From contig CAKZLU010000029.1 in assembly GCA_937127245.1 (NCBI GenBank), positions 67,502-131,501 on the forward strand: 64,000 nucleotides of DNA. Reading direction: 5' to 3'. The position numbers and the translations under genes are program-made. The stretch is from an uncultured Actinomycetes bacterium. GTDB taxonomy: Bacteria; Actinomycetota; Geothermincolia; Fen-727; JACVIW01. Below the pieces are notes generated by a model that saw nothing but the letters and a program-made list of their open reading frames with translations, searched no databases and was not told the DNA's origin. Shown here in pieces: positions 8,893 to 33,341 of this stretch; position 1 is the stretch's first letter, and each line of letters begins with the position of its first letter.

Positions 8893-9045
8893 TTCTTCCT
8901 CCTAAAACATCTGCCACCTTTTTCGCTTGCCTGACTACTAAACCAACCGCAATGGATTATATTACATTTCAAGTGGATGTTACTGCCGCCCCGTTTATAT
9001 GAACGGGATTATGAGGGGCAAAAAATTCTTGGTGAAAGCGCGGCG

Positions 9046-9063
9046 AAACGGACCGGTCCGTTT
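9046..9063. promoter_or_regulatory. Perfect 18-bp palindrome AAACGGACCGGTCCGTTT between the peptidase 3' end and the acyl-CoA dehydrogenase 5' end
   Basis: Read directly from the sequence. It looks like an operator, or forms a hairpin in RNA. Confidence 0.35.
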
Positions 9064-9168
9064 ACTGAAGCGTCCGCATGACGGAAAGCTAACCGCTATC
9101 GTTTGGCGGTAATCCTGCACGGTGCCTTCATCCCCGAGCGTCGCGAAATTTTTTCATGCTCAATCTCT

Positions 9169-11079
9169 CTAAATCAGAGGAGAACCCTTTTCGGGTTCGT
9201 ACATGGGCTCTTCTTCTCTTTTTTCAGAGTCGGGCGGTTTGTTGAAGAATTTGTCGAACATGTCCTCAAACATTTTTTCGAGGGGACCGAGATCAAACTC
9301 CCATTCTTCCTTAAATTTTTCAAAAAATTCATTTAGTCTTTCGAAACTGTCCGAGAACGGTGGCAGGGCTTCTTCAGTCTTCGCCTCCTTTATCCAGCTT
9401 TTGTAAAGCGAATCGAATTCTTGAGCGTCTTTAGCCTCCTTCCTCAGCGAATTTACAAGATCATCGCTTTCGGCTTGCTTGAAAGTGAAATCGCGATAGT
9501 AAACGGAGAGCGCTTTAAACAGATTTTTTTCTCCCATTTTCTTTTCCAGTTCATCGAAGAAAATGGCGCCTTTGCAATATATGATTGCCGTGTACTGCAC
9601 GGTGCTTGTGAATTCATACGCAGGGGAGTCCACTGGCAGGGATCTCATCCCACCCATCAGGGAGATCCTGTATGGAGCTAATATCTGCTGTTCGAATATT
9701 CCGTCTCCTTTATCTTTTCCGTACTTGAGATAGAAGTATTTTGCCGCGAGGTAGTTTACGAGCGACTCATCTTGCCAGGGGTGAATCACAGGGTCGCTCC
9801 CGACGGATATACCGAACCATTGATGGCAAATCTCATGGGCAATCACGAACTCGAGCGTATCCAACATTATGTTTCCGCTTATTTCCCCGAACAGACTCTC
9901 GAAATCTTCAGGAAGAGACCGCTTTAGTTCTTCGTATAAGCTTTTTTCCTTCTTACCTTTTGAGGGCAGGAGAGATGAGTTGATGAAAACAAGCCCCGTG
10001 AACTCCATTCCTCCCGCGTTTCCGGAAAGAGGTGCCTCGCACAAGGTGATATTGCCGTAAGGGAGACCGCCGAATTTCAGGCGATATTCTTTTATTGCCG
10101 ATAGCGAGAAATCAGCAAGTTTAGATGCCGCATCCTTTCTATCAGCGGAGACAGAAATTTTGATTTTCGTTTCTCCCGCTTCTTTTTCGGCGATAAATCG
10201 ATTTTTTGCCACCTGAGCTCCGAAATCACGGGACATGCCGGCAGCGAAACCATAAAGCATTCTTCCCGCAACCTCCTTTTTGCTAAACTCGGAGCCCGAT
10301 GCAAGTACCGTGAATCCTTCAGGCACGTCGAGGTAGACGAGATAGTGCGCGCAAAGACTTGGTGTTCTGTCGGCGAACGCGGGAACGTTTCTTATCTGCC
10401 ACCGTCCTTTTTCGAATTTGGCAATTGCCGGAATAAAATAGCCGAGGTTGAAAACGTCACCTTTATAGCCGAAAATCCCCATGCCGGCCTCTTCATTTTC
10501 ATCTCCTGTTGCTGGCGCTCCGATTGGAGGAATGCGCTCGGTGAGGTCAAGTTTGACAAGATAAGATTCTGCCCGCTTTAGGTTAAAGGAAGGTTTGAGA
10601 AAGAGGGTTTCTTTCTCAAGCGTGAATCTCGTTGCCCGTCCGTTGATTGAAGCGGAGTTGATCCAGACGTTGTCCCTCGTGCTGCTCGAGCTTCTGTTAG
10701 GATAAACGATGAGCGCAAGCTCCTTAAGGTCTGAGCCTGTCGTGTTCGGGAATAACAGGTTCAGTTTGCAGCGGATTTTCTTTTCTTTCTCATCGAGTTT
10801 TGCTTTTACGCTGTAAAAGGGGACCGGCTTATCAGCGTTCTTCGCCCTCTTCTTACCGATCTGGGAAAGAAAATTCAGGCACAACTGTTCTTTTTCCTTG
10901 AATTGGCTTACGCTTTGAGGGAGTTCGACTGTAGGCTCGGATTTTTTGGCTCTCGTGCCGATTCCAACAAGACAGGCGAGAATAAGGACGAAAACGGCGG
11001 AAATCGTGAGTAACGCCACGGAGACAAGTGGGACCGATTTTTCAGTTTCAAGTTCTCCAGCTCTTCGGGTGCCCGACAA
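9169..11079 (-). CDS. M1-family zinc metallopeptidase (aminopeptidase N-like), N-terminally membrane-anchored
   Basis: It has the HEICHQWFG HExxH motif with a downstream WQDESLVNYLA glutamate, and a GAMEN-like GGMEF motif. The N-terminus is one hydrophobic helix (VALLTISAVFVLILACLV). Confidence 0.75.
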   Translation of the reverse strand: MSGTRRAGELETEKSVPLVSVALLTISAVFVLILACLVGIGTRAKKSEPTVELPQSVSQFKEKEQLCLNFLSQIGKKRAKNADKPVPFYSVKAKLDEKEKKIRCKLNLLFPNTTGSDLKELALIVYPNRSSSSTRDNVWINSASINGRATRFTLEKETLFLKPSFNLKRAESYLVKLDLTERIPPIGAPATGDENEEAGMGIFGYKGDVFNLGYFIPAIAKFEKGRWQIRNVPAFADRTPSLCAHYLVYLDVPEGFTVLASGSEFSKKEVAGRMLYGFAAGMSRDFGAQVAKNRFIAEKEAGETKIKISVSADRKDAASKLADFSLSAIKEYRLKFGGLPYGNITLCEAPLSGNAGGMEFTGLVFINSSLLPSKGKKEKSLYEELKRSLPEDFESLFGEISGNIMLDTLEFVIAHEICHQWFGISVGSDPVIHPWQDESLVNYLAAKYFYLKYGKDKGDGIFEQQILAPYRISLMGGMRSLPVDSPAYEFTSTVQYTAIIYCKGAIFFDELEKKMGEKNLFKALSVYYRDFTFKQAESDDLVNSLRKEAKDAQEFDSLYKSWIKEAKTEEALPPFSDSFERLNEFFEKFKEEWEFDLGPLEKMFEDMFDKFFNKPPDSEKREEEPMYEPEKGSPLI

Positions 11080-16554: not shown

Positions 16555-19200
16555 CTACGCGTACTCGTATCTGTCGATTATGTCCTCCTGAATGGATTTG
16601 CCGAGATCAGTGAAATACGCGCTGTAGCCTGCTACTTTTACGACAAGGTCCCGGTATCTTTCGGGATTCTTCTGAGCGTCTTTCAGGGTTTCGCTTGAGA
16701 CTACGTTGGGCTGGATATGCATGCCGCCAAGGTCAAAATAAGTCTTAATCAGGGCGGCTATCTTCTGAACCCCTTCTTCGCTTTTCAGGCAGGAGGGATG
16801 AATCTTAACGTTCAGCGCCACTCCCCCGGAGAGTTTTGCCTGATTTATCGATGCTACAGATGAGAGGAGCGCCGTAAGACCGTTTCCGCCCCGAATAATG
16901 TTCGATGGCGATATTCCATTTGATGTGGGTTCCCCTCTTTTTCTTCCGTCGGGCGTTGCTCCAAGGTAAAATCCATCGAGCACGTGATTGCCGTAGGAGT
17001 ACATCCCCGCTCGATATCTTCCGCCCCTGACGTTCTTGTGCTTCTCGACTTCATCCACGAAGAACTTGACAATCGTCTTTGCGAGAAGGTCCGACTCTTT
17101 GTCGCCTCTACCGTATTTGTGCGGAGAGTTCAAAAGCCGCATCCGCAAATCCTCTCGTCGCTCGAAGTTGGAAAAGCAGGCGCGAACAAGCTCCTTTAAG
17201 GTAATCTCTTTCCTTTCGAAGACGAACTCGCGAACCGCCATCAGGCTGTCGACGGTCGTCCCCAGACCCCTCGCGATTATCGAGGTAAAATCATATTTTG
17301 CTCCGCCTCCGGTCATGTCCGTTGCGTTTTCAATGCAACCGTCTATGAGCGCAGAAACATATGGGGCGGGGAGCATTTCCATGTAGGCAAGGTCTTTTCC
17401 CTCGATTGCTTTTACGAGGGTAGATATGCAATGTCTCAGTTGGATCTTGAAAGCCTCAAAGAACTGGTCGAAATCCTTAAAATCTTCGGGTCTTCCGGTT
17501 TTCAAGCCTCTTTTCTGCCCGAAGATGGGCGCAGGGTATAGTCCGTTTGTCAGGGTCATGTACAGCACAGCGGGCAGGACTATTTCGTGACCGCCAGGGC
17601 AGGGAAAGCAGTTGTGTCCACCGCTTGTCTCTATGCAGCCCACGATTGTGTAGTCCCTTGCATCTTCTTTTGAAAGCCCGTTGCGTTCGAGGGCTGGAAT
17701 TATTACATCATCGTTGAAGAATGCGTGCCCGCTTGTCTTTCTGAATACCTTAACGGCGCGGTTAAGGAATTCAACTGGCGAGTCGGAGCTGATTCGCACC
17801 GAAAGCTGATTTATCGCTCCGTTCATTCTTTCATAAGCATCGAGCATAAGGTAAGAAAGCTCGTTCGTGGCGTCTGACCCATCCCTCCTCCTGCCGCCAA
17901 TAATCAGGCAGTGCTGACTTACCCCGAGGGTCGCGTTTGTCTCCGCGCCCACTTCAGGAAATAGTGAGATGTTTGCGGTAAGCTTTAAGTTCAACTCCTC
18001 AAGAATTTCAACCGCCTCTTCGATGGTTATTTCACCGTTTAGAAAATCGTTTAAGAAAAGCGGGTATAAATACTGGTCGGCTCTTCCTATGCCGAGCACA
18101 TCGTGCATGCCGTACTGAATCTCACCTACCAGTAACGCTAACCATATCGCTTGGACGCCTTCACGGAATTTTCTTGCCGGGCGTGCAGGGGAGTGCGAAA
18201 GCGTTTCCGCGATGCGTTTAAGTCTTTCAATCTCGCGTATGTCCTCCTGTGAAGATGCCATCTCGATGGCTTTTCTCCTAAGCCTTTCGGCGTATGTTGT
18301 AGCAGCTTCCATGCTGATGATTACGGCCTCGAGAAAAGCCTTCTTTTCTGTGTATGATGGATCCATTTCATCAAGTTTACCGATTCTTTCCCTTGCCCTG
18401 TCACGTATTCCGAGAAATCCTTCCAGGACCACCTTTTCAACACCGAGATGTAGATGACCCTGGACGTCATAACAATAGATGCCCATATTGGGGTTGTTTT
18501 TGGAGATCTCATCCCTTTTTTTCCAGACAAGAATCGCGCGACCGAGCGAGCGCGGTGCCGCCCCCCTTATTCCTGCCATCATTCTTAAATTCCGCTTGCC
18601 CAGATGTTTTGCGAACCGCAACATCTCGTATATCTGCCGGATGGTCCGCAGGGGATCACCTCTTACGGGCTCGATTATTCCTGACTCTGTCCATTTGTCG
18701 CCTTTGAGATCTCTTAAGGTTTTGCCTTCCCAGTAAGGGACAATCTCCTCGAGGAATACTTTCTTGTCTTCCGGATCGATATGAAACGGTCTTGCTTTGG
18801 CTGAAAGCACATCCATTTCCATTTGTAACGCCCTTAAGGAGTCGCCCCTTTCAGGGGCAATGACGGGCGATAAGAACTTGTCTGTTTTATTTCCAACTAT
18901 CCACTCATCCGGATAGATATGAACAGGCTGTTTCTCGCATGTTTCTTTCAAGGCAAGGGCGTTTCTCAAAGCGGGGTGCATTCCCTCGGTTTCCTTGTAC
19001 ACGCGCGTGAAATGTTTCGCCCTCTCAAGACATATCTCGTAAGGGGCATTTAGCAGGCGCTCTTTCAAACGCGCGATTCTCAGGCTGTCGCTTTTCAAGA
19101 GTCTTGCTCTTTCCTCAGTTATGCTCAGCAACTCTTGACCTCCCTTTTTCAACCGACCCTTCCGGTCAGATTTTCTTGTTCGGCTTTTCGTATTTGACAA
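16555..19200 (-). CDS. Glycyl radical enzyme (PFL2/glycerol dehydratase/X-succinate synthase superfamily)
   Basis: 881 aa. The C-terminal glycyl radical motif is VKVAGYSAYF. The catalytic Cys loop is IVGCIETSG. A basic N-terminal extension of about 50 aa is present. Confidence 0.85.
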   Translation of the reverse strand: MSNTKSRTRKSDRKGRLKKGGQELLSITEERARLLKSDSLRIARLKERLLNAPYEICLERAKHFTRVYKETEGMHPALRNALALKETCEKQPVHIYPDEWIVGNKTDKFLSPVIAPERGDSLRALQMEMDVLSAKARPFHIDPEDKKVFLEEIVPYWEGKTLRDLKGDKWTESGIIEPVRGDPLRTIRQIYEMLRFAKHLGKRNLRMMAGIRGAAPRSLGRAILVWKKRDEISKNNPNMGIYCYDVQGHLHLGVEKVVLEGFLGIRDRARERIGKLDEMDPSYTEKKAFLEAVIISMEAATTYAERLRRKAIEMASSQEDIREIERLKRIAETLSHSPARPARKFREGVQAIWLALLVGEIQYGMHDVLGIGRADQYLYPLFLNDFLNGEITIEEAVEILEELNLKLTANISLFPEVGAETNATLGVSQHCLIIGGRRRDGSDATNELSYLMLDAYERMNGAINQLSVRISSDSPVEFLNRAVKVFRKTSGHAFFNDDVIIPALERNGLSKEDARDYTIVGCIETSGGHNCFPCPGGHEIVLPAVLYMTLTNGLYPAPIFGQKRGLKTGRPEDFKDFDQFFEAFKIQLRHCISTLVKAIEGKDLAYMEMLPAPYVSALIDGCIENATDMTGGGAKYDFTSIIARGLGTTVDSLMAVREFVFERKEITLKELVRACFSNFERREDLRMRLLNSPHKYGRGDKESDLLAKTIVKFFVDEVEKHKNVRGGRYRAGMYSYGNHVLDGFYLGATPDGRKRGEPTSNGISPSNIIRGGNGLTALLSSVASINQAKLSGGVALNVKIHPSCLKSEEGVQKIAALIKTYFDLGGMHIQPNVVSSETLKDAQKNPERYRDLVVKVAGYSAYFTDLGKSIQEDIIDRYEYA

Positions 19201-20997: not shown

Positions 20998-23900
20998 TCA
21001 ATAGGAGAAAGCGACCGAAGAGTGAGCCCAGGTCCTCTCATCTCCGTACATAGCCCGCTCGCAAATGATGCTTCCGCCTGTGGATTCGACTTTGGTTGAC
21101 ACGTTGTATGTGGTCACGAATTGTCCTATGTCGAACGTCTTCCTCGAGTTTGCGGGTATCTCAACGCTCTGGAGTTCGTGAGGTTTAACCGCGCCGTCTT
21201 CGGTCATGAGGGTCAGGTTCACTCTTACGCTTCTGTTATTCGGGTTGGCCACCAGTACCCATGTCTCCATGCCGCCTGCTGTCGAGCCCTCCGCGAGATA
21301 CCAGGTTGCCGAAGGAGCTGTGACTCCCACCGAAGAGTGAGCCCAGGTCCTCTCATCTCCGTACATAGCCCGCTCGCAAATGATGCTTCCGCCTGTGGAT
21401 TCGACTTTGGTTGACACGTTGTATGTGGTCACGAATTGTCCTATGTCGAACGTCTTCCTCGAGTTTGCGGGTATCTCAACGCTCTGGAGTTCGTGAGGTT
21501 TAACCGCGCCGTCTTCGGTCATGAGGGTCAGGTTCACTCTTACGCTTCTGTTATTCGGGTTGGCCACCAGTACCCATGTCTCCATGCCGCCTGCTGTCGA
21601 GCCCTCCGCGAGATACCAGGTTGAGGCTTTTGGCTTACCGGGTTTTGGCGGTGGTGTGGGAACTTCGCTTTGCAAGACCTCGAAGCCTTGCGCTTTTCGC
21701 CCGGTCTTGCCATCCGGATTTTCGACAACCACATCCCACTTGCCTGCCTGGGCGCCCTTCAGTTTGAAGCGGCAGGTTATTTTCGTATCGGATACAACAT
21801 CCACGCCCTCTCCCTGTATCGGAGATAAGCCTGATTTCTCAAGCCTTACCCGGGCTCCCGACTTGAAGCCCGTGCCCGCAAGATTCGTTATCTCCACGTA
21901 GCCGTCGTTTAGCCCTGAGGAGGGCGTAATGGAGATTACCACCGGTGCAGGAGTCTCAATTACCTCGAAGCCTTGCGCTTTTCGCCCGGTCTTGCCATCC
22001 GGATTTTCGACAACCACATCCCACTTGCCTGCCTGGGCGCCCTTCAGTTTGAAGCGGCAGGTTATTTTCGTATCGGATACAACATCCACGCCCTCTCCCT
22101 GTATCGGAGATAAGCCTGATTTCTCAAGCCTTACCCGGGCTCCCGACTTGAAGCCCGTGCCCGCAAGATTCGTTATCTCCACGTAGCCGTCGTTTAGCCC
22201 TGAGGAGGGCGTAATGGAGAGAATTTCGGGGTTCTCGTTCCATGTGTAGATCGGGTTCGTTATCGCCACTTCCCAGCCGAGTTGCGTAAGCTGGATGATG
22301 TTTGTTATTGGATTTGCTCCCGGGTCCACCGCGAGGTGGTGAAGTTGAGCCCTATAATAATCGCCTCTCTTTGGCACATCGAAGAATGTGTACTCGAAAC
22401 TATCCGAGCATGCCCATTTGATTTTGAATATCTCCCCGTTCTTGAAGACTATGAGGAGAGGCGGAAGTATGCCAGTGATGCCGGAAGCTCCGGTCACTTT
22501 TACGAGGAATTTCGCTGGTCTGCGAAGCGCTTCGTGCGGAATCGTATCGCCCATCATGAGGCTGTAGGAATCGGGATCTGACTCTGAATACGCGGGCGCC
22601 GCCTTGAACTCTACTTTAGGTCCTTGAGGCTGCAGGCTTATGAAAGCCCTCCCCGCCTTCAGAGCGTCAAGAATGTCGGTCGCGCTTCTGGAACTAGAAA
22701 ATACCCAGGTCGTGGGAATTCCGATATTGTGGTACAGGGTTTGAAGGAAACTTTTTAGATTGTCTGTTCTTTGGGCGTGACTGTCACTTCCGCCAACCAT
22801 GGAGATTTTTCTTCCCTGTTTGACGTAATCGTTATGAATGATGTAAACGGAAGCGTGATTGAAGTTCGGCCAGAAGTAGCGTGAATTCCAAACTTCCATG
22901 GTGTCGGCATCTTTGCTTTCCTCAAACGGGTAAAGCCACAGACAGCACGGTGAACTGGGATGATTTATTGAAATGATTATCCTTTGCCCCGGTTCAGCAA
23001 GCGAGTGTGCGATCCTAATTGCCTCTTGAGCGTTTCCCTCACCCTCGAGCGTAGGTTCTATCGCCGACCAATCAAAAGGCCTGTCGGAGATAATGTTTGC
23101 GTGTCCCCTCGATGTGGTCCATTCAACCCCGTAAAGCAAGGTAAGGATATCTGAGTGAAAACCGGGGTCGTTCCATTGCCCGACGACGTTATGGTCTGTG
23201 AGCGCGAAATAATCAAGTCCCTGACTTTCGGCAGTTGAGATGACATTGCTTACGTCTGAGTCCCCATCGCTATAAGTCGAATGTGCGTGAAGATCGCCTT
23301 TAAGCCACTGTCCCTCAAGCGGGGGAATCGCGCTCATCTTGAGATTGACCCACACTGGTGCCGTCACCGCAAGCTGGACGTCGTGGTCCGGATCATCGTC
23401 GTTGCTGTCCTCGCCTGTGACGCGGACGAAGTAGTAAGATGAATAGAACGCGCTAACGGTGGGGTTCCATGAAACGACCTTTGTTCCGGGCTCGAATTCC
23501 CTTAAAGCAGCGGTCTCCCCCCCATTTGTTATGACTTCGATCTTTTTTATGTCTTCATCATCCTCAACGAAGATGTTCAACTTCACTGAACCGGGATCGA
23601 CTTCGACGCTTGATCCCATCCAAGCGTCCCCACATTTAAGCGCGATTCTCATGTTCGGGTCATCCGTTGAATAGACACGCCTGCTGTTCATCGCCTCAAG
23701 GATGGCTGGCCTGGAAAGCGATGTCGCGATAACTGCCGTCCTGTGGCTGTTCGTTTCCAGAGTGTTGTTGTCTTGGTTGGCAGTCGGCGCGAGCCGCCAT
23801 CCAGTATCGAGGGCTTGTATGTAGTACTTGTGAAACTCCCCGATAGTGTTTCCGGAATCCTTGTTACCTGTCTCGATTGCCCAGACAAGAGATGCTGGCA

Positions 23901-24465
23901 TTTCGGTGGGATACCTCAGGTTTCTGAACAGCCACGGTTCCCTTCCAGGGTGATTGAACTGAGCAATCCCCCCGCTTTGCTTAAGCCATCGGTAAAACTG
24001 CGAGAGAAGAAAGTTCTGGAATATATTCGTAAACGTTGCCGTGTTATAGACATTGATATGTCCGAGTATGGGGTTGCTCCACTCAAACCCTCTCATCGCC
24101 ACGAACACGCCGTCAACGTTGTGCGCGTCGGCAGCGGCACCGGTTTCATCCCACTCTTCCTGGGTCAGGTATTCCGCATTGTCTGTTACCGCATAGAAGT
24201 CATAGCCGGCTTCGTATCTCGCCCATGTGAAAGCTTCGTCAGGTGTGCCCTGACCGTCGGAATAGTTCGTATGGCTGTGGAAGTTGCCGAAGTAAACGTT
24301 CATTCCATTGAAAATGCCAGTATCGGGCGGCGTCTTTACCTCTCCGCCGTTCGATTTGTTCGGAGCGCCGTATGCAGGTAGTGCGAAAAATGAGGCGGTC
24401 AGTAGAATAATAAGGATGAAGGCGACGAATCTGTCTGACAGCCGACGGGTCAATTTCATGTCCAA
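20998..24465 (-). CDS. Large secreted multidomain protein: signal peptide, two PHP (polymerase/histidinol-phosphatase-like metallo-phosphoesterase) domains, two identical IPT/TIG-like repeats, a Pro/Lys linker, and two identical WYLAEGST beta-sandwich repeats
   Basis: The N-terminal signal-like segment ends at ALPAYG-A. PHP metal motifs are HSHTNYSDG and LHAHSTYSDG. The C-terminal repeats are seen at both protein and DNA level. Confidence 0.6.
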   Translation of the reverse strand: MDMKLTRRLSDRFVAFILIILLTASFFALPAYGAPNKSNGGEVKTPPDTGIFNGMNVYFGNFHSHTNYSDGQGTPDEAFTWARYEAGYDFYAVTDNAEYLTQEEWDETGAAADAHNVDGVFVAMRGFEWSNPILGHINVYNTATFTNIFQNFLLSQFYRWLKQSGGIAQFNHPGREPWLFRNLRYPTEMPASLVWAIETGNKDSGNTIGEFHKYYIQALDTGWRLAPTANQDNNTLETNSHRTAVIATSLSRPAILEAMNSRRVYSTDDPNMRIALKCGDAWMGSSVEVDPGSVKLNIFVEDDEDIKKIEVITNGGETAALREFEPGTKVVSWNPTVSAFYSSYYFVRVTGEDSNDDDPDHDVQLAVTAPVWVNLKMSAIPPLEGQWLKGDLHAHSTYSDGDSDVSNVISTAESQGLDYFALTDHNVVGQWNDPGFHSDILTLLYGVEWTTSRGHANIISDRPFDWSAIEPTLEGEGNAQEAIRIAHSLAEPGQRIIISINHPSSPCCLWLYPFEESKDADTMEVWNSRYFWPNFNHASVYIIHNDYVKQGRKISMVGGSDSHAQRTDNLKSFLQTLYHNIGIPTTWVFSSSRSATDILDALKAGRAFISLQPQGPKVEFKAAPAYSESDPDSYSLMMGDTIPHEALRRPAKFLVKVTGASGITGILPPLLIVFKNGEIFKIKWACSDSFEYTFFDVPKRGDYYRAQLHHLAVDPGANPITNIIQLTQLGWEVAITNPIYTWNENPEILSITPSSGLNDGYVEITNLAGTGFKSGARVRLEKSGLSPIQGEGVDVVSDTKITCRFKLKGAQAGKWDVVVENPDGKTGRKAQGFEVIETPAPVVISITPSSGLNDGYVEITNLAGTGFKSGARVRLEKSGLSPIQGEGVDVVSDTKITCRFKLKGAQAGKWDVVVENPDGKTGRKAQGFEVLQSEVPTPPPKPGKPKASTWYLAEGSTAGGMETWVLVANPNNRSVRVNLTLMTEDGAVKPHELQSVEIPANSRKTFDIGQFVTTYNVSTKVESTGGSIICERAMYGDERTWAHSSVGVTAPSATWYLAEGSTAGGMETWVLVANPNNRSVRVNLTLMTEDGAVKPHELQSVEIPANSRKTFDIGQFVTTYNVSTKVESTGGSIICERAMYGDERTWAHSSVAFSY
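21013..21623. repeat. Nucleotide-identical tandem repeat, about 1.9 copies of a 315-bp unit (encodes the WYLAEGST... repeats on the minus strand)
   Basis: Direct comparison shows 21016.. matches 21331.. exactly. The identical plus-strand shadow ORFs 21121..21414 and 21436..21624 confirm this. Confidence 0.9.
21678..22225. repeat. Nucleotide-identical tandem repeat, about 1.9 copies of a 285-bp unit (encodes the IPT/TIG-like ITPSSGLNDGYVEITNLAGTGFKSG... repeats)
   Basis: Direct comparison shows 21681.. matches 21966.. exactly. Shadow ORFs 21521..21901 and 21929..22186 share identical C-terminal 72 aa. Confidence 0.9.
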
Positions 24466-24941: not shown

Positions 24942-25487
24942 ATGCCTGATTCTGTTACTACGATTGAAAAGGAGATAGGAAAAAGAATCGGCGAAAAGCC
25001 ATGGCTCTGCTATCAATGCAAGAAGTGCACCGCAGGATGTCCTGTTTCCTTCGCGATGGACCTTATGCCTCATGAAATCATGAACCTTCTGCGCTGGAGC
25101 GCCAGCGACAGGATACTCGCTTCTTCGACAATCTGGCTTTGCGCCTCTTGTGAGACGTGTTCGGTTCGCTGTCCCAACGGAATTGACATCGCGGGTGTGA
25201 TGGACGCGCTCCGATCCATCTCTATCGATAAGCATTACCGTCCTGGCGAACCGCTCGTAACCGCGTTTCACCGCTCTTTTCTCGCAGGGATAATGGGCGC
25301 GGGAAGAACAAACGAACCTGTTTTGATCGGTATTTACAAAATTCTGAGCGGGCGCCTGCTGGATGACATCGGTCTCGGGGTAAAAATGATTCTGAAGAGA
25401 AAGATCAAACCCGTGCCCCGATTTGTGAAAGACAGGGCTGCGATCCGCAGAATCTTCAGGGAAGCGAAAGCCCGGAGGACGAAATGA
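24942..25487 (+). CDS. hdrC: Heterodisulfide reductase subunit C-like (two [4Fe-4S] clusters)
   Basis: CYQCKKCTAGCP and CASCETCSVRCP motifs. Its stop overlaps the hdrB start (ATGA). Confidence 0.8.
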   Translation: MPDSVTTIEKEIGKRIGEKPWLCYQCKKCTAGCPVSFAMDLMPHEIMNLLRWSASDRILASSTIWLCASCETCSVRCPNGIDIAGVMDALRSISIDKHYRPGEPLVTAFHRSFLAGIMGAGRTNEPVLIGIYKILSGRLLDDIGLGVKMILKRKIKPVPRFVKDRAAIRRIFREAKARRTK

Positions 25488-26362
25488 GTCTGAAATACGC
25501 TTATTTTCCAGGATGTTCCCAGGTGAGTTCCGCCGAAGAATACGGGCTTTCGACAGAGGCGGTATGCGAGTCGCTCGGGATTGAGCTTGTAGAACTCGAC
25601 GACTGGAACTGCTGTGGTGCCTCGTCCGCCCACATGACCGACGAGTTCCTTTCCGCCGCTCTACCCGGTCGGAATCTTGCGATCGCGAGAGAAACGGGTC
25701 TGGATTTGCTTACGGTTTGCGCCGCCTGCTACTCGCGGCTCACCATGTCCAACGCAAAGATTAAAAGTGACGACGCCCTACGTGAACGAATAGAGCGGGC
25801 AGTGGGCGCTGACCCTCGTTTCGAGGGGAAGGTACGGCATTTGCTCGACGTTATAGTGAATGACGTGGGTATTCCCCAAATAAAAAAATTTGTGAAAAAT
25901 GACCTTTCAAGCATCAAGGCCGTTCCTTATTACGGTTGTCTTCTGGTCAGACCTCGGGAAGTTTGCTTTTGTGATTCTGCGGAAAATCCCACTGAACTCG
26001 ACCTTCTTATTTCCGCTCTGGGTTTAGAGGTTAGGCAATGGTCTTATAAAACGGACTGTTGCGGGGGTAGTCTTTCACTTTCGAGGAATGATATTGTGCA
26101 GAGGCTTGTGAACCGCATATTCGAGCGCGCTGTTGAGGCAGGCGCTGATTTGATCGTTACCGCATGTCCCATGTGTCTTGCCAATCTAGAGATGCGACAG
26201 AAACCTGGAAAGCTGAGGTTCGAGCAGGTTTTCACCGTGCCGGTTCTTTATTTCACCGAACTTATTGGTCTTGCCATGGGACTTGACGGTTGGGAGAAAT
26301 GGCTTGGCGCTCATCTCATAGATCCATTTCCAGTCCTTAAAAAGATAGAAGCTCTCTCGTAG
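25484..26362 (+). CDS. hdrB: Heterodisulfide reductase subunit B-like (two CCG cysteine-rich domains)
   Basis: The N-terminal CCG domain has DWNCCGAS...CAACYSR. The C-terminal CCG domain has KTDCCGGS...CPMCLANL. Confidence 0.85.
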   Translation: MSLKYAYFPGCSQVSSAEEYGLSTEAVCESLGIELVELDDWNCCGASSAHMTDEFLSAALPGRNLAIARETGLDLLTVCAACYSRLTMSNAKIKSDDALRERIERAVGADPRFEGKVRHLLDVIVNDVGIPQIKKFVKNDLSSIKAVPYYGCLLVRPREVCFCDSAENPTELDLLISALGLEVRQWSYKTDCCGGSLSLSRNDIVQRLVNRIFERAVEAGADLIVTACPMCLANLEMRQKPGKLRFEQVFTVPVLYFTELIGLAMGLDGWEKWLGAHLIDPFPVLKKIEALS

Positions 26363-26498: not shown

Positions 26499-29400
26499 AT
26501 GAACGGAAAAATTTACGAAACCCAAACTGAGGGAGGAAAATCAGAGCGTGTTTACAGCTCTAAACCGGTTGGGTCAGTGATGGTGATTGGGGGAGGAATA
26601 GCCGGCGTACAAGCATCTCTGGATTTAGCAGATCTCGGTTACAGGGTTTACCTTGTTGACTCCGCTCCTTCAATAGGCGGGGTAATGGGCCAGCTTGATA
26701 AGACGTTTCCCACGAACGACTGCTCTATGTGTATTCTCTCGCCTAAACTAGTCGAGGCGGGGTCTAACGACAACATCGAAATAATCACTCTTGCCGAGAT
26801 TATGGATATAACCGGAGAACCCGGGAACCTCGAGGTGATTCTTAAGAGGAACCCCAGGTTTGTGGATATTGACAAATGCACCGGTTGTGGAATATGCACG
26901 GAACACTGCCGAGTCAAGGTTAAAGATCCTTACAATGCGGGTCTTGCGCGGGTTCCGCTCATAAGAGTTCCATTCCCTCAAGCCGTGCCGGGCGCGGCTT
27001 TCATAGACCCGACCAAATGCCTCCAGATATTGAAGGGTAAATGCGGAGAATGCCAGAAATACTGCCCCGCTGGAGCGATAGATTTTTCCGACAAAGAAAG
27101 GACCGATAAGATTGAAGTTGGCTCGGTCATTATAGCATGCGGTTTCAGCCCTTTTGATCCCCACAAGACTGAGGAGTACGGATACGGAACCTATGAAAAC
27201 GTGATAACCAGCCTGGAGTTTGAGCGCATTCTCGCCGCCAATGGACCAACCGGTGGTCACATCTTGAGGCGCTCCGATTCACAATCAGCACAGAAGATAG
27301 CGTTCATTCAGTGCGTGGGCTCGAGGGATTCCAGGATCGGGAACACGTACTGCTCTTCTGTCTGCTGCATGTATGCCACCAAGCAGGCGATTATCGCCAG
27401 GGAGCACGACAGACGTATTCAATCCACCATTTTTTACATAGATTTTCGCGCCCACGGCAAGGGATTTGAGGAGTACCGCTCGAGAGCTGAGAATGAGCAC
27501 GGGGTGCGATACGTAAGGTGTCTTGTGTCTGCGGTGAAGGAGATGCAGCCTTCCAAGCGCCTGCTCCTTGTCTTCATAAACGAGGAGAATCAGTTTGTCG
27601 AGGAAGAGTTCGATCTTGTCGTGTTGAGTGTTGGCATAACGAGCGGGATTGATGCGCTGGCGACAAGACTCGGGATCCGGGTTAATTCCCACGGTTTTAT
27701 ACAAGTGCCGAAACCAGCCAGCTTGGAGACATCAAGACCGGGGGTATATGTTTGTGGAGCGGCTGAGGGTCCCAAAGACATACCGGAATCGGTAATCCAG
27801 GCAAGTGCGGCTGCCGGAAGCGCCTCCTCCTTGCTCTGCCCCTCGAGGGGTGAGCTAACGGTAAAAAGGGAGTATCCTCCCGAAAGGGACGTGCGAGGGG
27901 ATGAGCCGAGAATCGGAGCGATAATATGCCGCTGCGGAACTAACATTGGCGGCGTGGTTGATGTGCCTGCTGTGGTTGAGTACGCCAGAACTCTCCCGGG
28001 TGTGGTGTTTGCTGAAGAGAGGCTTTACGCGTGCAGTCAGGACGCGCAAGTATGGATAAAGGAAATAATCGAGAAGCATAAGCTAAACAGGCTTGTGGTT
28101 GCTTCATGCACCCCGAGGACTCACCAGCCTTTGTTCAGGGAGACTGTTCGTTTGGCGGGGCTCAATAAGTATCTGTTCGAGATGGCTAACATCAGGGAGC
28201 ACTGCTCCTGGGTTCATATGGATGAGCCAGGACTGGCGACTGAAAAAGCCAAGCAGCTGGTGCTGATTGCTGTTAAGAAAGCGTCCCTTCTTGAACCACT
28301 GGAAGAAGGGGTTTCTCCCGTTACGCCTGTCGCTTTGGTGATCGGCGGCGGTCCTGCGGGAATGTCAGCAGCCCTCAGGCTTGCCGATGCTGGTTTCAAG
28401 ACCCATCTTGTCGAGCAAGAGGAAGAGCTCGGCGGCAACATGAGGCATGTGAGGATGACCCTGGAAGGGGATAACGCGCGTGAAATACTCGAAGAAATGA
28501 TTCGATCTGTCATGAATCATCCCCTTGTGGAAGTTCATTTAACCTCGAAGGTTGCCTCCATTGAGGGCTACGTTGGGAGCTACACTTCAGTCATCGAGAA
28601 ATGCGCTAACTCAGCGGGGCGTTCAAACCCCGATATTGAATCGGCAAGTCTTGGTGATGATGTGTCCGAAGATGGGACCGTGAGAGTTGATCACGGCATA
28701 GTGGTGGTCGCTGTCGGCGCGGAGGAGTACAGGCCGAAATACGGCGAGTACATGTACGGTCTTGATCAAAGAGTGATAACGCAAACCGAGCTTGAGCGCC
28801 GGATTTTCGATGAGCCGGAATCACTGGAAGGTGTAAAGAACGTGGTGATGGTCCAGTGCGTGGGATCACGCAACGAGGAACATCCTTACTGCTCTCGGAT
28901 TTGCTGCGGGGTGACACTGAAAAACGCTTGCGAATTGAAGAAGTTTCTGCCCGGAGCGAATGTGACAATATGTTACAGGGATGTGAGGGCATATGGTTTC
29001 AACGAGGAAAAGTACCTTGACGCACGTGAGAGAGGAGTGAGGTTTGTCCGCTTCACACAGGAAGACCAACCTTCGGTAAGCGCGGCTATAGGAAGACTTG
29101 AGGTGGTCGTGAAAGACAGGAACATGCGCGATGAGGCAATCACCATTTTCCCGGACCTCCTCGTCCTTTCGTGCGGAATCGTGGCGCGCGGGGGATCGCG
29201 GGAACTTGCGTCCATGCTCAAGGTCCCCCTTACTTCTGATGGATTCTTCCTGGAAGCTCACGTGAAGCTGAGACCGATTGAGTTTGCGACCGATGGCATC
29301 TTTCTTGCGGGCATGGCGCATTATCCAAAAACGATCAGGGAGAGCATCGCCAGCGCCCAGGCCGCGGCCGCGAAGGCAGAAGCGGTTCTTTCGAAAGACA

Positions 29401-29666
29401 AGATTGTAACCGAGGGCATAGTCGCGCGAATAGACCCCGAGATTTGCTCGGGATGTGGCCAATGCATCGACCTTTGCTCGTACGGAGCTTTGGAGTTTGA
29501 CCCCTCGATGAGAGTCGCGAGAGTTAACCCTTCGCTGTGCAAGGGCTGCGGGGCTTGCAGTGCGGCTTGTCCTTCAGGAGCGAATCAACTTCTCGGCTTT
29601 AGACCCTGTCAAATCTACGCGCAGATTGAAGCTTCATGCGCTCTTCTGGAGGCGGGTGGTCAATGA
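26499..29666 (+). CDS. hdrA: HdrA-like flavoprotein, 1055 aa, apparent tandem HdrA-HdrA fusion with a C-terminal 2x[4Fe-4S] ferredoxin domain
   Basis: There are two GxGxxG FAD motifs (VIGGGIAGVQASLDLA near the N-terminus and VIGGGPAGMSAALRLA near the middle). There are two CVGSR(D/N)...YCS..CC cluster motifs. An inserted CTGCGICTEHC ferredoxin, a mid-protein CRCG..ASCTPR Cys-rich domain and a C-terminal CSGCGQCIDLCS...CKGCGACSAACP domain are also present. Confidence 0.85.
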   Translation: MNGKIYETQTEGGKSERVYSSKPVGSVMVIGGGIAGVQASLDLADLGYRVYLVDSAPSIGGVMGQLDKTFPTNDCSMCILSPKLVEAGSNDNIEIITLAEIMDITGEPGNLEVILKRNPRFVDIDKCTGCGICTEHCRVKVKDPYNAGLARVPLIRVPFPQAVPGAAFIDPTKCLQILKGKCGECQKYCPAGAIDFSDKERTDKIEVGSVIIACGFSPFDPHKTEEYGYGTYENVITSLEFERILAANGPTGGHILRRSDSQSAQKIAFIQCVGSRDSRIGNTYCSSVCCMYATKQAIIAREHDRRIQSTIFYIDFRAHGKGFEEYRSRAENEHGVRYVRCLVSAVKEMQPSKRLLLVFINEENQFVEEEFDLVVLSVGITSGIDALATRLGIRVNSHGFIQVPKPASLETSRPGVYVCGAAEGPKDIPESVIQASAAAGSASSLLCPSRGELTVKREYPPERDVRGDEPRIGAIICRCGTNIGGVVDVPAVVEYARTLPGVVFAEERLYACSQDAQVWIKEIIEKHKLNRLVVASCTPRTHQPLFRETVRLAGLNKYLFEMANIREHCSWVHMDEPGLATEKAKQLVLIAVKKASLLEPLEEGVSPVTPVALVIGGGPAGMSAALRLADAGFKTHLVEQEEELGGNMRHVRMTLEGDNAREILEEMIRSVMNHPLVEVHLTSKVASIEGYVGSYTSVIEKCANSAGRSNPDIESASLGDDVSEDGTVRVDHGIVVVAVGAEEYRPKYGEYMYGLDQRVITQTELERRIFDEPESLEGVKNVVMVQCVGSRNEEHPYCSRICCGVTLKNACELKKFLPGANVTICYRDVRAYGFNEEKYLDARERGVRFVRFTQEDQPSVSAAIGRLEVVVKDRNMRDEAITIFPDLLVLSCGIVARGGSRELASMLKVPLTSDGFFLEAHVKLRPIEFATDGIFLAGMAHYPKTIRESIASAQAAAAKAEAVLSKDKIVTEGIVARIDPEICSGCGQCIDLCSYGALEFDPSMRVARVNPSLCKGCGACSAACPSGANQLLGFRPCQIYAQIEASCALLEAGGQ

Positions 29667-30172
29667 TGAGTGAAGCACGCGGCTCAAGCGTGAAAATACC
29701 CGATGACGTGAGAATCGTGGCTTTCCTTTGCAACTGGTGTTCGTATGCCGGGGCTGACCTTGCTGGTGTGAGCCGCATGCAGTACCCCCCAAACGTCGTG
29801 GGGATAAGGGTTATGTGTACGGCCACGGTATCTCCGTATCACGTGCTTAAAGCTCTGCAGATGGGAGCGGATGGCGTATTGATCGCCGGTTGCCACATCG
29901 GGGATTGTCATTACCTGAAAGGTAACTACATGACTTACAAAAGATACCTTATCTTGCGAGAAATTCTTCGCTTCGCGGGCATTAACGAGAAGAGAGTTCG
30001 GCTCGAGTGGATTTCCGCGGCTGAGGGCGAGAAATTTGCTGAAGTGATAAGGAGTTTTACCGAAGAGGTTAGAGAGGCTGGATTGAGCCCCTTGAGAAAG
30101 AACGAGGTCATTAAGTCGGAGTTTGGCGAAAAGCTCAAAAACGCTTTCCGTTCACTTGAGGTTGTCAAATGA
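29663..30172 (+). CDS. mvhD: MvhD/FlpD-like methyl-viologen-reducing hydrogenase delta subunit homolog ([2Fe-2S])
   Basis: The conserved pattern is FLCNWCSY...VMCTA...AGCHIGDCHY. The ATG at 29663 overlaps the hdrA stop (ATGA); the longer frame begins at 29636. Confidence 0.8.
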   Translation: MMSEARGSSVKIPDDVRIVAFLCNWCSYAGADLAGVSRMQYPPNVVGIRVMCTATVSPYHVLKALQMGADGVLIAGCHIGDCHYLKGNYMTYKRYLILREILRFAGINEKRVRLEWISAAEGEKFAEVIRSFTEEVREAGLSPLRKNEVIKSEFGEKLKNAFRSLEVVK

Positions 30173-30310
30173 AAGCCAAATTTCTCATGAAAAAGCCCAT
30201 AGGTACTGTCTCCGTCTGGGAATCGGAGGACTTTTGTCTTTCGTTTGGCTCTTTGTTGAGCGGGCGCAACGGACTTGCAAGTATCTTATGAGCGGAAGCG
30301 GAGGAATATC

Positions 30311-31117
30311 GTGTCGATAAGAGAAAAGGCGCGTCAATTGTTCGCGGAGGGAGTTGATGGGGTTCTCGCTTTCAAGAGAACGGATGGCGTTTGCATACCC
30401 CATCTCTTTACCAAAACCGAGGTCGAGGAGATTTGCAAGGACGTTCCCGCAGATCAAAGATACCCGGTTGCCGGAATCGTCCGCCGCATTTTCCTTTCCG
30501 GGCTTGCCGGAAAAATTGGCGTCGTGGCCAGGGGATGCGACGAGAGGGCACTTATCGAACTGGGCAAGCAGGGTCAAATCGATTTTGACCTTTTATCAAT
30601 CATCGGGGTCGCCTGCAGTGAGGAACAGGCAAGATACTGCGAGTGCTCAAAGCCTTATCCCTCACGCATAGATGTTGGCTCAAGATTTGAGGGAATATCG
30701 GTTTCTGAAAAAGTCCGCGCCGTCGAATCCATGGAAGGCGATGAGAGACTCGCCTACTGGCTTGCTCAATTCGCTTCTTGCCTGAAGTGTATGGGTTGCA
30801 GAAATATCTGTCCCGTTTGCTATTGTGTTGAGTGCTCTCTCGAGGATGAAAACCTCGTCCGGCGCGGGAGCGTACCTCCTGACTGGCCTGTCTTCCACCT
30901 TCTCCGGGCGGTTGACATGGCTTCGAGGTGCATTGATTGCGGACTGTGCGAGGAAAGTTGTCCATCGGGTATTCCGCTCAGAACGCTTTACAAAAAGGCA
31001 ACCGAAATTGTTAAAGAATTGTTCGACTATGAACCTGGCGCGGATATGACCCAAAGGAGCCCGCTTGGAACTATCGGGGATCAAAGCGAGCTGCCCGGCG
31101 GGGCATTTGAGGCGTGA
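30311..31117 (+). CDS. Iron-sulfur subunit, 2x[4Fe-4S] ferredoxin core with FrhB/FdhB-like flanks (putative electron-transfer subunit between Fdh and Hdr)
   Basis: CLKCMGCRNICP and CIDCGLCEESCP motifs. The likely start is the GTG at 30311, after a GGAGGA RBS; the ORF track begins at TTG 30275. Confidence 0.5.
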   Translation: MSIREKARQLFAEGVDGVLAFKRTDGVCIPHLFTKTEVEEICKDVPADQRYPVAGIVRRIFLSGLAGKIGVVARGCDERALIELGKQGQIDFDLLSIIGVACSEEQARYCECSKPYPSRIDVGSRFEGISVSEKVRAVESMEGDERLAYWLAQFASCLKCMGCRNICPVCYCVECSLEDENLVRRGSVPPDWPVFHLLRAVDMASRCIDCGLCEESCPSGIPLRTLYKKATEIVKELFDYEPGADMTQRSPLGTIGDQSELPGGAFEA

Positions 31118-31280
31118 AAGGAGTCCGTAACTGTTTTCAAAATTTGGTTTTTTGCATGAAAGACTCAACTTAATCACTAATCCGGTAGGGTAATTTTAAA
31201 AATAAAAAAGTGGCGCGGAGACAATATGCCGCGTGTAAGTTTGTGGAAGTGCTTGGATCAATCGATTGTCAGGAGAGTCT

Positions 31281-33341
31281 ATGTCAGATAAGAACTTAGA
31301 TTTTAGCTATACCACGGTTCCCACTATCTGTCCCTACTGCGGAACAGGTTGCGGGATGCTTCTCGAAGTTATCGGGGGAAAAATATCAGGCGTGCTTCCC
31401 ATGAAAGGGCACCCGGTATCCGACGGTTGTCTCTGCCTGAAAGGCTGGACGGCGCACGAGTTTGTCTCATCTCCAGACAGACTTGCCCGCGCGCTTGTGG
31501 GTAAGGATGGAGATTTCAAGGAGGTCGGATACACCGAAGCTGTTGCGCTCGTGGCAGATGCGATGCGCGAAACTGTTGAGAATCACGGCCCTGACAGCTG
31601 CGCTTTTGTCGCATCGGCAAGATGCACCAATGAAGAGAATTATTTGATGAGTAAACTTGCGCGTTTCGCGGTGGGCACAAACAACATAGATCACTGCGCG
31701 CGTTTGTGACACAGCCCAACGGTCGCCGGTCTGGCGACGGTGTTCGGTTCTGGTGCTATGACAAACTCGATAGGTGAGCTATCGGATGCCGATGTAATTT
31801 TGCTGACAGGATCGAACACCAGCGAACAGCACCCGGTCATTGCGGGGAAGATATTGGACGCGGTCCGGAAGGGCGCGAAACTGCTCATATTCGACCCTCG
31901 CATCATTCATCTTACCTCATTTGCTCACATGCATTTACGGCAAAAGCCGGGTACGGACATAGTCTGGATAAACGCTTTAATGAAAGTGATCATTGATGAG
32001 GACCTCCTGGACAGAGAGTTCGTAAACTCAAGAACCGAGGGCTTTGAAGAGCTTTCGCGTTCGCTGGAAAACTATTCTTTGGAGCGCGCGGCTGAAATAT
32101 GCGGAATAGAAGCTTCAGACCTCAGGGAAGCGGCGAGGATTTTCGCAATGGCTGACAAGGCGTCGATAGTCTATTGCATGGGGATAACTCAGCACGTTTT
32201 CGGCACCAGGAATGTACTGGCACTCGCTAACCTCGCGCTGTTGACAGGAAACGTTGGCAGACTCTCCACCGGTGTAAATCCGCTCCGCGGCCAGAACAAT
32301 GTGCAGGGAGCTTGCGATGTGGGGGCGCTTCCAAATGTTCTTACTGGTTACCAGAAGGTTGACGACGATGTTGCGAGGGGGAATTTTGAAAGCGCCTACG
32401 GAAAGAAACTACCTTCAAAACCTGGATTGACTCTTATTGAAATAATGAACGCTTGTCTTGAGGGAAAGATCAAGTTTCTCTACATAATGGGTGAAAACCC
32501 GATGATAACCGAGCCGGATTTAAAGCACGTCGAAGAAGCGCTCTCGGCGGTTGATTTTCTGGTGGTTCAGGACATATTTCTTACCGAAACCGCCAGGCTC
32601 GCTCACGTGGTGCTTCCTGGTAGCTGCTGGGCGGAAAAGGACGGTACATTTACGAACACGGAGCGTCGGGTTCAAAGAATAAGGAAAGCTATCGATCCCC
32701 CCGGAGATGCCAGACTGGACTGGCAGATCATCTGTGACATAGCGAAAGCTTTCGGTTCAGATTATTTCGAATATTCTTCTGCCGAGGAGATATTTGACGA
32801 GATAGCGAAATTAACTCCCTCGTACTCGGGGATGAGTTATCAAAGGCTTTCCACGCAAGGTTTGCAGTGGCCGTGTCCTTCAGTTGACCATCCGGGCACC
32901 GTTTACCTGCACGAGACAGGTTTTGCAAGGGGTAAAGGACTTTTCAGCGTGGTTGAATACGATCCCGAATCTCAGAAGCTCGAAGAACACTATCCTTTCG
33001 TGCTCATGACTGGCAGGGTAGGATTTCAGTATCACTCCGGAACGATGTCCAGACGTTCACGCGCGCTCGCGCGTGAGGTACCCGAAGCTTACGTCGAGAT
33101 CAGTCCTCAGGATGCGGCAAGACTCGGTATTTCAGATCGAGATAAAGTAAAAGTTGTAAGCCCCAACGGCGAGCTCACCGTCCGCGCATTTGTTACTGAA
33201 AGGGTTCGTCCCGGCGAGATATTCATTCCTTTCCACTTTTCTGAAGCTCCCGCGAACATACTTATAAACAGCAGAGAGCTTGACCCACAAAGCAAGATAA
33301 CCTCAATGAAGTTTTGTCCGGCGAGGATAGAGAAGGCATAA
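31281..33341 (+). CDS. fdhA: Formate dehydrogenase alpha subunit (molybdopterin oxidoreductase), selenocysteine-containing; in-frame TGA at 31707..31709
   Basis: The N-terminal Fe-S motif is CPYCGTGCG...C. ORFs 31266..31709 and 31740..33341 share one frame, joined by a single TGA. It sits in the canonical HCARL-U-HSPTVAGL motif (compare E. coli FdhF VCHxRxCHGPSVA with U140). Molybdopterin-binding and C-terminal cap regions follow. Confidence 0.85.
31710..31745 (+). promoter_or_regulatory. SECIS-like hairpin immediately 3' of the UGA (stem GTCGCC/GGCGAC 31722-31727/31733-31738, apical loop GGUCU)
   Basis: Read from the sequence. The hairpin starts about 13 nt after the UGA, and its apical loop contains GGUC, as in bacterial SECIS elements. 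Confidence 0.55.

Follow-up and report, generated by a model that had tools for sequence, protein, structure and literature searches.

Canonical HdrA (PDB codes 5odc, 7bkb, 8rvu and 9sfi) is a flavoprotein of about 650 residues that holds one flavin adenine dinucleotide (FAD) per chain and forms a symmetric dimer with each peripheral domain present twice; within that dimer, the N-terminal cluster of each chain receives Cys197 in trans from the partner (PMC9012536). A second architecture, type II HdrA (class A3), is described in a 2025 survey of archaeal HdrAs, which lists 176 sequences in methane-metabolising archaea, argues for a fusion origin and puts forward the hypothesis of two bifurcation sites (PMC12054007). 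HdrA3 and HdrA4 of anaerobic methanotrophic (ANME) archaea have been read as a heterodimer in one chain, on the grounds that Cys197 and the N-terminal domain are distributed in a complementary way (PMC9012536). Among bacteria, enlarged HdrAs belong to the MetFV–HdrCBA–MvhD methylene-THF reductase systems of Sporomusa ovata (942 residues) and Moorella thermoacetica (1487 residues; PMC9430772), and hdrA–mvhD–hdrCB clusters have been noted in Actinobacteria with a Wood–Ljungdahl pathway (PMC7325909). Here we analyse a 64,000-nucleotide stretch of DNA (hereafter the window) assigned to an uncultured Actinomycetes bacterium (contig CAKZLU010000029.1), in which an hdrA gene at 26499..29666 on the forward strand encodes a type II HdrA of 1055 residues.

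We judge it probable that this protein arose when two distinct HdrA paralogues were fused long ago, asymmetrically rebuilding the canonical homodimer within one chain, and that it likely serves a formate-linked bifurcating disulfide reductase. The gene is a single uninterrupted open reading frame (ORF) of 1055 codons plus stop, with GAGG eight bases 5' of its ATG start. A first-pass annotation had proposed an in-frame fusion of two HdrA-like modules, and this is borne out, each half of the one ORF containing an FAD Rossmann motif and the four-Cys cluster of a thioredoxin-reductase (TrxR) fold. The FAD motifs that it quoted are two separate sites, GGGIAGVQ...LVDS at residue 31 and IGGGPAGM...LVEQ at residue 615 (placed near residue 605 in that annotation), and the HdrA cluster motif CVGSR...C..CC is likewise present in two copies, as CVGSRDSRIGNTYCSSVCC at residue 272 in module A and CVGSRNEEHPYCSRICC at residue 787 in module B. 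A TrxR-fold FAD domain, recognized by GxGxxG and a C-terminal GD-type motif, occurs twice in the product, and the Pfam models Pyr_redox_2, FAD_oxidored and NAD_binding_8 match residues 26–437 and 613–671. The gene and its parts are laid out as follows, in positions of the window:

26499..29666, + strand: type II (two-module) hdrA, 1055 residues (ORF, three assemblies, NCBIfam and PDB matches, AlphaFold2 model)
26499..27893, + strand: module A, residues 1–465; TrxR fold with FAD motif at 31–55, inserted ferredoxin and four-Cys cluster
27894..28325, + strand: HdrA N-terminal (MvhD-like) Fe–S domain of module B, residues 466–609, by alignment to 5odc_A
28326..29423, + strand: module B TrxR fold, residues 610–975; FAD motif at 615–640, four-Cys cluster at 787–803, E766 and K808
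29424..29633, + strand: C-terminal ferredoxin domain, residues 976–1045, 2 x CxxCxxCxxxC; aligns to HdrA 577–648 and matches Pfam Fer4/Fer4_7

Searching PDB sequences with phmmer gave a match to Methanothermococcus thermolithotrophicus HdrA (5odc_A, E 3e-191), in three pieces that fall out of canonical order: residues 27–382 align to HdrA 146–497 (TrxR domain with inserted ferredoxin), 468–618 to HdrA 2–152 (N-terminal domain, E 7.5e-50) and 876–1045 to HdrA 477–648 (end of the TrxR domain plus C-terminal ferredoxin). We rebuilt the 5odc_A sequence from the phmmer alignments, in a numbering that reproduces Cys194 and Cys197, and then aligned both halves to it. Module A begins straight at its FAD Rossmann motif; its Cys75 and Cys78 correspond to Cys194 and Cys197, its inserted ferredoxin domain is complete (8 Cys, residues 127–189) and aligns contiguously with the canonical one, and its four-Cys TrxR cluster is formed by C272/285/289/290 (region 272–290). 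Neither an N-terminal domain nor a C-terminal ferredoxin was found for module A in the alignment to M. thermolithotrophicus HdrA. Module B opens with an N-terminal Fe–S domain (Cys477, 479, 512, 537 and 569), has Asn659 and Glu662 at the Cys194 and Cys197 positions, carries a short low-confidence loop (704–722) instead of the inserted ferredoxin, retains the four-Cys cluster (C787/798/802/803) and ends with the eight-Cys C-terminal ferredoxin.

The Cys-rich segment between the halves (CRCG at 477, ASCTPR at 535, HCSWVH at 568), which had been likened to the HdrA N-terminal or MvhD-like domain, belongs to module B and forms its N-terminal domain. The accompanying claim that each half has ferredoxin-type Cys clusters holds as to their presence; they are not equivalent copies, the first half having the inserted ferredoxin and the second the C-terminal one. 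The four domain types, cluster ligands, FAD residues and bifurcation residues are those of the canonical homodimer, but here they are arranged as one chain with two TrxR units in which each peripheral domain occurs exactly once. With two TrxR domains, and with N-terminal domain and C-terminal ferredoxin confined to the C-terminal half, the protein is a type II HdrA. It is predicted from its ligand sets to hold two FAD and seven [4Fe–4S] clusters. The bifurcation signature, Glu356 and Lys409 next to the FAD N5 (the criterion of Appel et al. 2021, as applied in PMC12054007 and PMC9430772), has equivalents in both modules: E242 with K295 (module A) and E766 with K808 (module B). Reading the chain as having two potentially bifurcating flavins, as the first-pass annotation did, is fair on these residues, and that reading is already in print. 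The NCBIfam models HdrA2 NF040770 (974.7 bits against a cut-off of 1100) and HdrA NF041778 (730.9 bits against 1400) match the protein in 3 stretches, with scores that make it related to methanogen HdrA without being its equivalog.

The layout suggests how one chain might stand in for the canonical dimer. The equivalent of Cys197 (C78) lies solely in module A and the N-terminal domain solely in module B, so that the chain could by itself make up an asymmetric heterodimer that contains two TrxR-type flavin/[4Fe–4S] units but a single electron entry and a single low-potential exit. Module A would supply a flavin site, the inserted ferredoxin domain as a ferredoxin-reducing exit, and the Cys197 equivalent. 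AlphaFold2 modelling of the 1055-residue chain from a 21-sequence alignment (mean predicted local distance difference test score (pLDDT) 79.8, predicted template modelling score 0.83) indicates one compact, confidently packed multi-domain body. The sole internal low-confidence segments are 62–76, 480–485, 568–574 and 704–722, and the first three coincide with the loops presumed to provide ligands of a shared cluster (Cys75/78, the residues after Cys477/479, and Cys569); these low-pLDDT loops are an indirect hint that ligation of the N-domain cluster may be shared between the modules. Foldseek comparison of the model with the PDB returned single-module HdrAs, at target-normalised TM-scores of 0.75 for whole chains and 0.87–0.91 for the core. 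No tandem HdrA structure was found in the PDB copies searched, whether by phmmer on sequences or by Foldseek on the model.

A heterodimer of this kind predicts that module A should universally retain a Cys or selenocysteine at the Cys197 position although the N-terminal cluster domain is missing from that module. This could be assessed across relatives, which proved numerous. When each GTDB species was represented by a single genome, a scan confirmed at least 600 colinear relatives in Bacteria and Archaea, and we examined 80 of their loci. The bacterial ones come from Desulfobacterales, Syntrophobacterales, Chloroflexota, Planctomycetota, Nitrospirota and Bacillota, and the archaeal ones from Thermoplasmata, Bathyarchaeia, Asgard archaea, Archaeoglobi, Methanomassiliicoccales, ANME-2, Ca. 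Methanoperedens and Methanosarcina sp. DH2. Across 81 aligned sequences the module A position is Cys in 45, an in-frame TGA in 35 and truncated in 1; the module B position is never Cys. The retention in module A is thus as the heterodimer reading predicts. Stops within the KTFPTxxCxx-stop motif are TGA in all 43 instances, paralogues counted, and we therefore read them as selenocysteine.

The TGA at the Cys197 (Cys78) codon recurs in 35 of the 80 type II relatives, for example L008 (at about 8217), L026, L040, L050, L060, L061 and L080 (KTFPTNDCxM-TGA-I). In these relatives selenocysteine would occupy the position that ligates the N-terminal cluster of the partner module. The window organism has selenocysteine in FdhA and Cys at position 78 of HdrA.

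Conservation extends to the remaining ligands. In the alignment of 21 homologues (at least 53% identity to the window protein), little or no variation is seen in the Fe–S ligands, both GxGxxG motifs, both Glu/Lys pairs or the linker KEYPPERDV.GE.PRIG. G31/33/36 and G616/618/621, and Cys477, 479, 512 and 537 of the N-terminal domain, are invariant in both the 21- and the 81-sequence alignments, and the four-Cys [4Fe–4S] site (Cys386/399/403/404 in M. thermolithotrophicus) is kept in both modules in 81/81. The module A residues listed above are invariant in the 21 homologues and conserved in the 81 sequences, where Cys78 is Cys or selenocysteine and a few gaps stem from truncated ORFs. The C-terminal ferredoxin has its 8 Cys invariant in the 21 homologues, and Cys1017 is replaced by Asp in 23 of the 81.

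A protein-database search gave 8000 scored candidates. We inspected the best 120, which span 997–1110 residues save for three of about 1500, and which cover 95–99% of the query at 50–80% identity (82–83% coverage for the three long forms). Named relatives at 57–66% identity are from Geothermincolia, Ca. Solincola sediminis, Ca. Anoxymicrobium japonicum and unspecified Actinomycetota metagenome-assembled genomes (MAGs); a cluster further removed includes one sequence from Thermodesulfobacteriota.

How the two modules came together can be judged from their similarity. The self-alignment that the first-pass annotation had called for gives significant internal similarity (BLASTP, 32% identity over 250 residues, E 6e-22), and its score of 85.9 bits, against at most 25.4 bits in 50 shuffles, places it far above chance. 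Together with the paired FAD and CVGSR...C..CC motifs, this is what would be expected of a recent in-frame tandem duplication, with two complete and equivalent HdrA units covalently joined as a homodimer. Over 385 columns common to three sequences, however, module A is 44% and module B 38% identical to archaeal HdrA, and the two are only 31% identical to each other; the N-terminal domain, the inserted ferredoxin, the C-terminal ferredoxin and Cys197 each occur singly, in a complementary pattern. The low mutual identity and the complementary domain content argue against a recent tandem duplication. The same asymmetric layout recurs in 80 relatives from many phyla and both domains of life, and the 2025 survey, which concludes that type II HdrA arose by fusion, assigns its N- and C-terminal halves to different clades with affinities to classes A6 and A12 (PMC12054007). 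We regard duplication as highly improbable, and the description of a tandem duplication or covalently dimerised HdrA does not survive the comparison. The sequences fit, and favour, an ancient fusion of two HdrA paralogues that had already diverged.

A fused gene might also be counterfeited by an assembly or sequencing error that wrongly joins two adjacent hdrA genes, and separate tandem hdrA genes with the same complementarity are indeed known in ANME archaea (HdrA5/6 and HdrA12/13; PMC9012536). Contigs of three independent origins (an ENA assembly, a JGI metagenome and the NCBI MAG GCA_036733065.1) nevertheless encode the identical 1055-residue protein, and the hdrA region contains zero N or other ambiguous bases. 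In 80 of 80 relative loci module A runs directly and in the same frame into module B, across the conserved linker consensus, which rules out mis-assembly; we give a mis-joined gene pair practically no chance.

Set against the archaeal type II HdrAs (PMC12054007), the window protein has the same two TrxR domains in a chain of roughly 1000 residues, the same N-terminal part resembling class A6 (no N-terminal domain, no C-terminal ferredoxin), the same retention of K409 and E356 in both halves and the same neighbour, mvhD, often followed by an FdhB/molybdopterin-protein pair. Loci of ANME-2, Methanoperedens and Methanosarcina are colinear with it over residues 22–1045 at 45–51% identity. The order of the halves differs from one published wording: Chadwick et al. 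(PMC9012536) describe the N-terminal half as bearing the N-terminal domain and lacking Cys197, whereas the window protein and the ANME-2 and Methanoperedens loci have the reverse, in agreement with PMC12054007 and PMC9430772. In L048 (ANME-2, 8001–10823) and L078 (Ca. Methanoperedens, 8001–10859) the Cys197-bearing module comes first and the N-domain module second.

The S. ovata and Moorella HdrAs are, like ours, bacterial; they share, in the same N-to-C order, the extra TrxR-like module, the MvhD-like N-terminal domain, the TrxR domain without inserted ferredoxin and the C-terminal ferredoxin, and their operons also contain hdrCB and mvhD. They differ in that the Moorella protein has a GltD (NAD(P)H/FAD) insert and the S. 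ovata protein no inserted ferredoxin, while ours carries the latter domain and is free of GltD; their partner is MetFV where ours is formate dehydrogenase. The Glu/Lys pair is present in one module in S. ovata and in both modules here. Moorella HdrA was found by experiment to hold two FAD (Mock et al. 2014, as reported in PMC5861303).

The longest relatives, of about 1500 residues (P0084, P0087 and P0114, 1510–1550), carry a GltD/NfnB-like insert (PF14691) within module A and correspond, in their domain content, to the Moorella/HdrL-type HdrA. Long-form matches of 4–4.7 kb were also seen at L007, L009, L011 and others, and some Bathyarchaeia and Asgard loci have the long form.

The operon has the order hdrC–hdrB–hdrA–mvhD–fdhB-like (truncated)–fdhA (selenocysteine), all on the forward strand, and the genes flanking hdrA are:

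24942..25487, + strand: hdrC-like, 181 residues, 4Fe–4S dicluster protein (Pfam Fer4_17/Fer4_8)
25484..26362, + strand: hdrB-like, 292 residues, two CCG domains (Pfam CCG in two stretches; CC motifs at residues 43 and 192)
29663..30172, + strand: mvhD, 169 residues, FlpD/MvhD [2Fe–2S] protein (Pfam FlpD, E 2.4e-52; NCBIfam VhuD and HdrA2 C-terminus)
30275..31117, + strand: truncated FdhB-like Fe–S protein, 268–280 residues (PDB FdhB 9t1s_M, 7bkb_E and 8rvu_E, E 2e-30 to 6e-21)
31266..33341, + strand: fdhA, formate dehydrogenase alpha subunit, selenoprotein (same frame on both sides of TGA 31707–31709; Pfam Molybdop_Fe4S4, Molybdopterin and Molydop_binding)

The mvhD start overlaps the hdrA stop, and an alternative ATG lies at 29636. 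The hdrB-like product scores 176 bits against the HdrB model TIGR03288 (cut-off 345). That of the hdrC-like gene matches the NCBIfam HdrC and QmoC models below their cut-offs, QmoC weakly. QmoA and QmoB of sulfate reducers are two different HdrA-like flavoproteins that act together, as separate polypeptides with a membrane subunit and no HdrB; the likeness to the window protein is conceptual, both being a hetero-pair of diverged HdrA-like flavoproteins.

The in-frame TGA of fdhA sits within the canonical active-site motif ARL-U-HSPTVAGL, and the part after it alone (the C-terminal 533 residues) matches TIGR01591 Fdh-alpha at 637 bits; in the ORF lists, as in each of the three public gene calls, the gene appears as two pieces of 142 and 527 residues. 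Fourteen nucleotides 3' of the UGA is a hairpin (GUCGCC/GGCGAC, loop GGUCU; -20.4 kcal/mol, z -0.8 against shuffles). Its position and loop sequence are suggestive of a selenocysteine insertion sequence (SECIS), with a folding energy no better than that of shuffles. An Rfam scan of the whole window at gathering thresholds gave no match and no annotated SECIS family, and so offers no RNA-level explanation.

In the FdhB-like protein, residues 25–115 correspond to FdhB 35–125 and residues 116–260 to FdhB 231–376, so that about 105 central residues of methanogen FdhB are missing, and the FrhB_FdhB domain found no Pfam or NCBIfam match. The absence of this central region makes F420 coupling unlikely, and the protein is probably an Fe–S wire between FdhA and MvhD, without a flavin/F420 site. 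Of the components of an FdhAB–MvhD–HdrABC complex, then, the operon encodes a catalytic selenocysteine FdhA, MvhD, a two-CCG HdrB and HdrC, and lacks a full-length FdhB.

Among 83 loci (the 80 relatives plus three copies of the window's own locus, L001–L003), an mvhD homologue is found in 76, directly 3' of hdrA in most. Other neighbours vary: HdrC is present in 31, HdrB in 24, an FdhB-like homologue in 21 (3' of mvhD) and FdhA in 9, the window's three copies included. Six MAG loci from Desulfobacterales and related deltaproteobacteria (L011, L026, L050, L061, L064 and others) also have the FdhB-like/FdhA pair. The near-constant mvhD and the variable remainder point to type II hdrA and mvhD as the conserved core, around which input and output modules can be exchanged.

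By homology to 7bkb and 9t1s, whose Fdh–FdhB–MvhD input chain the window parallels, formate would be oxidised at the selenocysteine–molybdenum/tungsten–pterin site of FdhA, and electrons would pass through the FdhB-like clusters to the MvhD [2Fe–2S] centre and from MvhD into the C-terminal ferredoxin domain of module B. Bifurcation at FAD would then send one branch through a TrxR-domain cluster towards HdrC and HdrB, where the CCG clusters would reduce a disulfide, and the other through the N-domain cluster (with Cys78 as putative ligand) to the inserted ferredoxin of module A and on to ferredoxin. Because a 2026 paper on Hdr–Vhu–Fwd and a 2018 review do not assign the domains of each protomer of the canonical dimer to a flavin, we follow PMC9012536 for this putative routing. 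The reverse direction, confurcation, would be equally possible.

Electrons might instead enter from NAD(P)H, as in Moorella MetFV–Hdr, Flx–Hdr or HdrL. Moorella HdrA oxidises NADH (PMC9430772), and the 1500-residue relatives P0084, P0087 and P0114 have the GltD/NfnB-like insert PF14691; a Pfam scan of the 1055-residue protein, by contrast, found neither that insert (PF14691/Fer4_20) nor a second Pyr_redox insert. No flx or metFV genes occur in the operon, and the genes directly 3' of hdrA are mvhD, fdhB-like and selenocysteine fdhA. An NAD(P)H-linked complex is in our view very unlikely.

Two further genes lie upstream on the reverse strand. At 16555–19200 an 880-residue glycyl-radical enzyme (PFL-like plus Gly_radical) is encoded about 7 kb upstream of the hdr operon, with no evident link to the Hdr cluster. 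At 20998–24465 a 1155-residue ORF with a TTG start matches PHP, IPT/TIG and DUF5719; it is a long gene in the ENA and JGI records and a set of short ORFs on both strands in the NCBI record, which probably under-annotates it.

Several observations weigh against a formate-linked bifurcating enzyme with two working flavin units. The HdrA, HdrB and HdrC proteins all miss their NCBIfam equivalog cut-offs. A single hdrBC pair is encoded for two TrxR clusters, and either one or two HdrBC units might bind each chain. The FdhB-like protein is without the region that carries flavin/F420 in methanogen FdhB, and its role as a simple wire is likewise read from homology. The host is probably a bacterium without coenzymes M and B (CoM/CoB), which makes a strict heterodisulfide reductase unlikely; the thiol or disulfide substrate would probably be another. 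We know of no biochemical work in which the part played by a type II HdrA was studied separately. The second flavin may also be non-bifurcating, with a transfer or structural role even where its residues survive: across the 81 aligned sequences the Glu356 equivalent of module B is kept in 55 and the Lys409 equivalent in 63, against 81 of 81 for both in module A.

These counts bear on which flavin bifurcates. The universal retention of its Glu and Lys places the module A flavin site under universal constraint; the module B site is intact in the window protein and dispensable in some lineages. One reading is that the FAD of module A alone bifurcates, module B being a degenerate partner, much as S. 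ovata keeps the Glu/Lys pair in just one of two TrxR domains (PMC9430772); the front half of the module B TrxR domain is, besides, too diverged for phmmer alignment to solved HdrAs. Yet GxGxxG, E766, K808 and the four-Cys cluster of module B are kept here and in all 21 homologues, and PMC12054007 reads both sites as bifurcation-competent. We consider a one-flavin enzyme possible, though not the likelier outcome. The fullest version of the two-flavin proposal, in which both flavins bifurcate, in series or in parallel, within a formate-driven bifurcating reductase of a non-CoM/CoB disulfide, in an Actinomycetota of Wood–Ljungdahl type with a catalytic selenocysteine formate dehydrogenase and an FdhB stripped of its flavin/F420 part, we hold to be unlikely in all its parts together. 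The ancient, asymmetric fusion as such remains our preferred account of the protein.

The architecture, the fusion origin and the two-flavin hypothesis have all been published already, and what sets this case apart is modest: a host that is probably actinomycetotal, a truncated FdhB, and a formate dehydrogenase that looks catalytically intact, a bona fide selenocysteine FdhA, where a non-catalytic role is proposed for the molybdopterin partner of ANME and Methanosarcinales (PMC12054007). With at least 600 species-representative matches, type II HdrA is among the commonest HdrA architectures in anaerobes, and yet this very common form has no structure in the PDB copies searched. Its symmetry-broken layout within one chain would tie each peripheral domain to a given flavin, and thereby make it a clean system for learning how HdrA-type bifurcation routes electrons; the present operon, which pairs it with an intact selenocysteine FdhA and a minimal FdhB, is a reasonable bacterial candidate for expression and cryo-electron microscopy.

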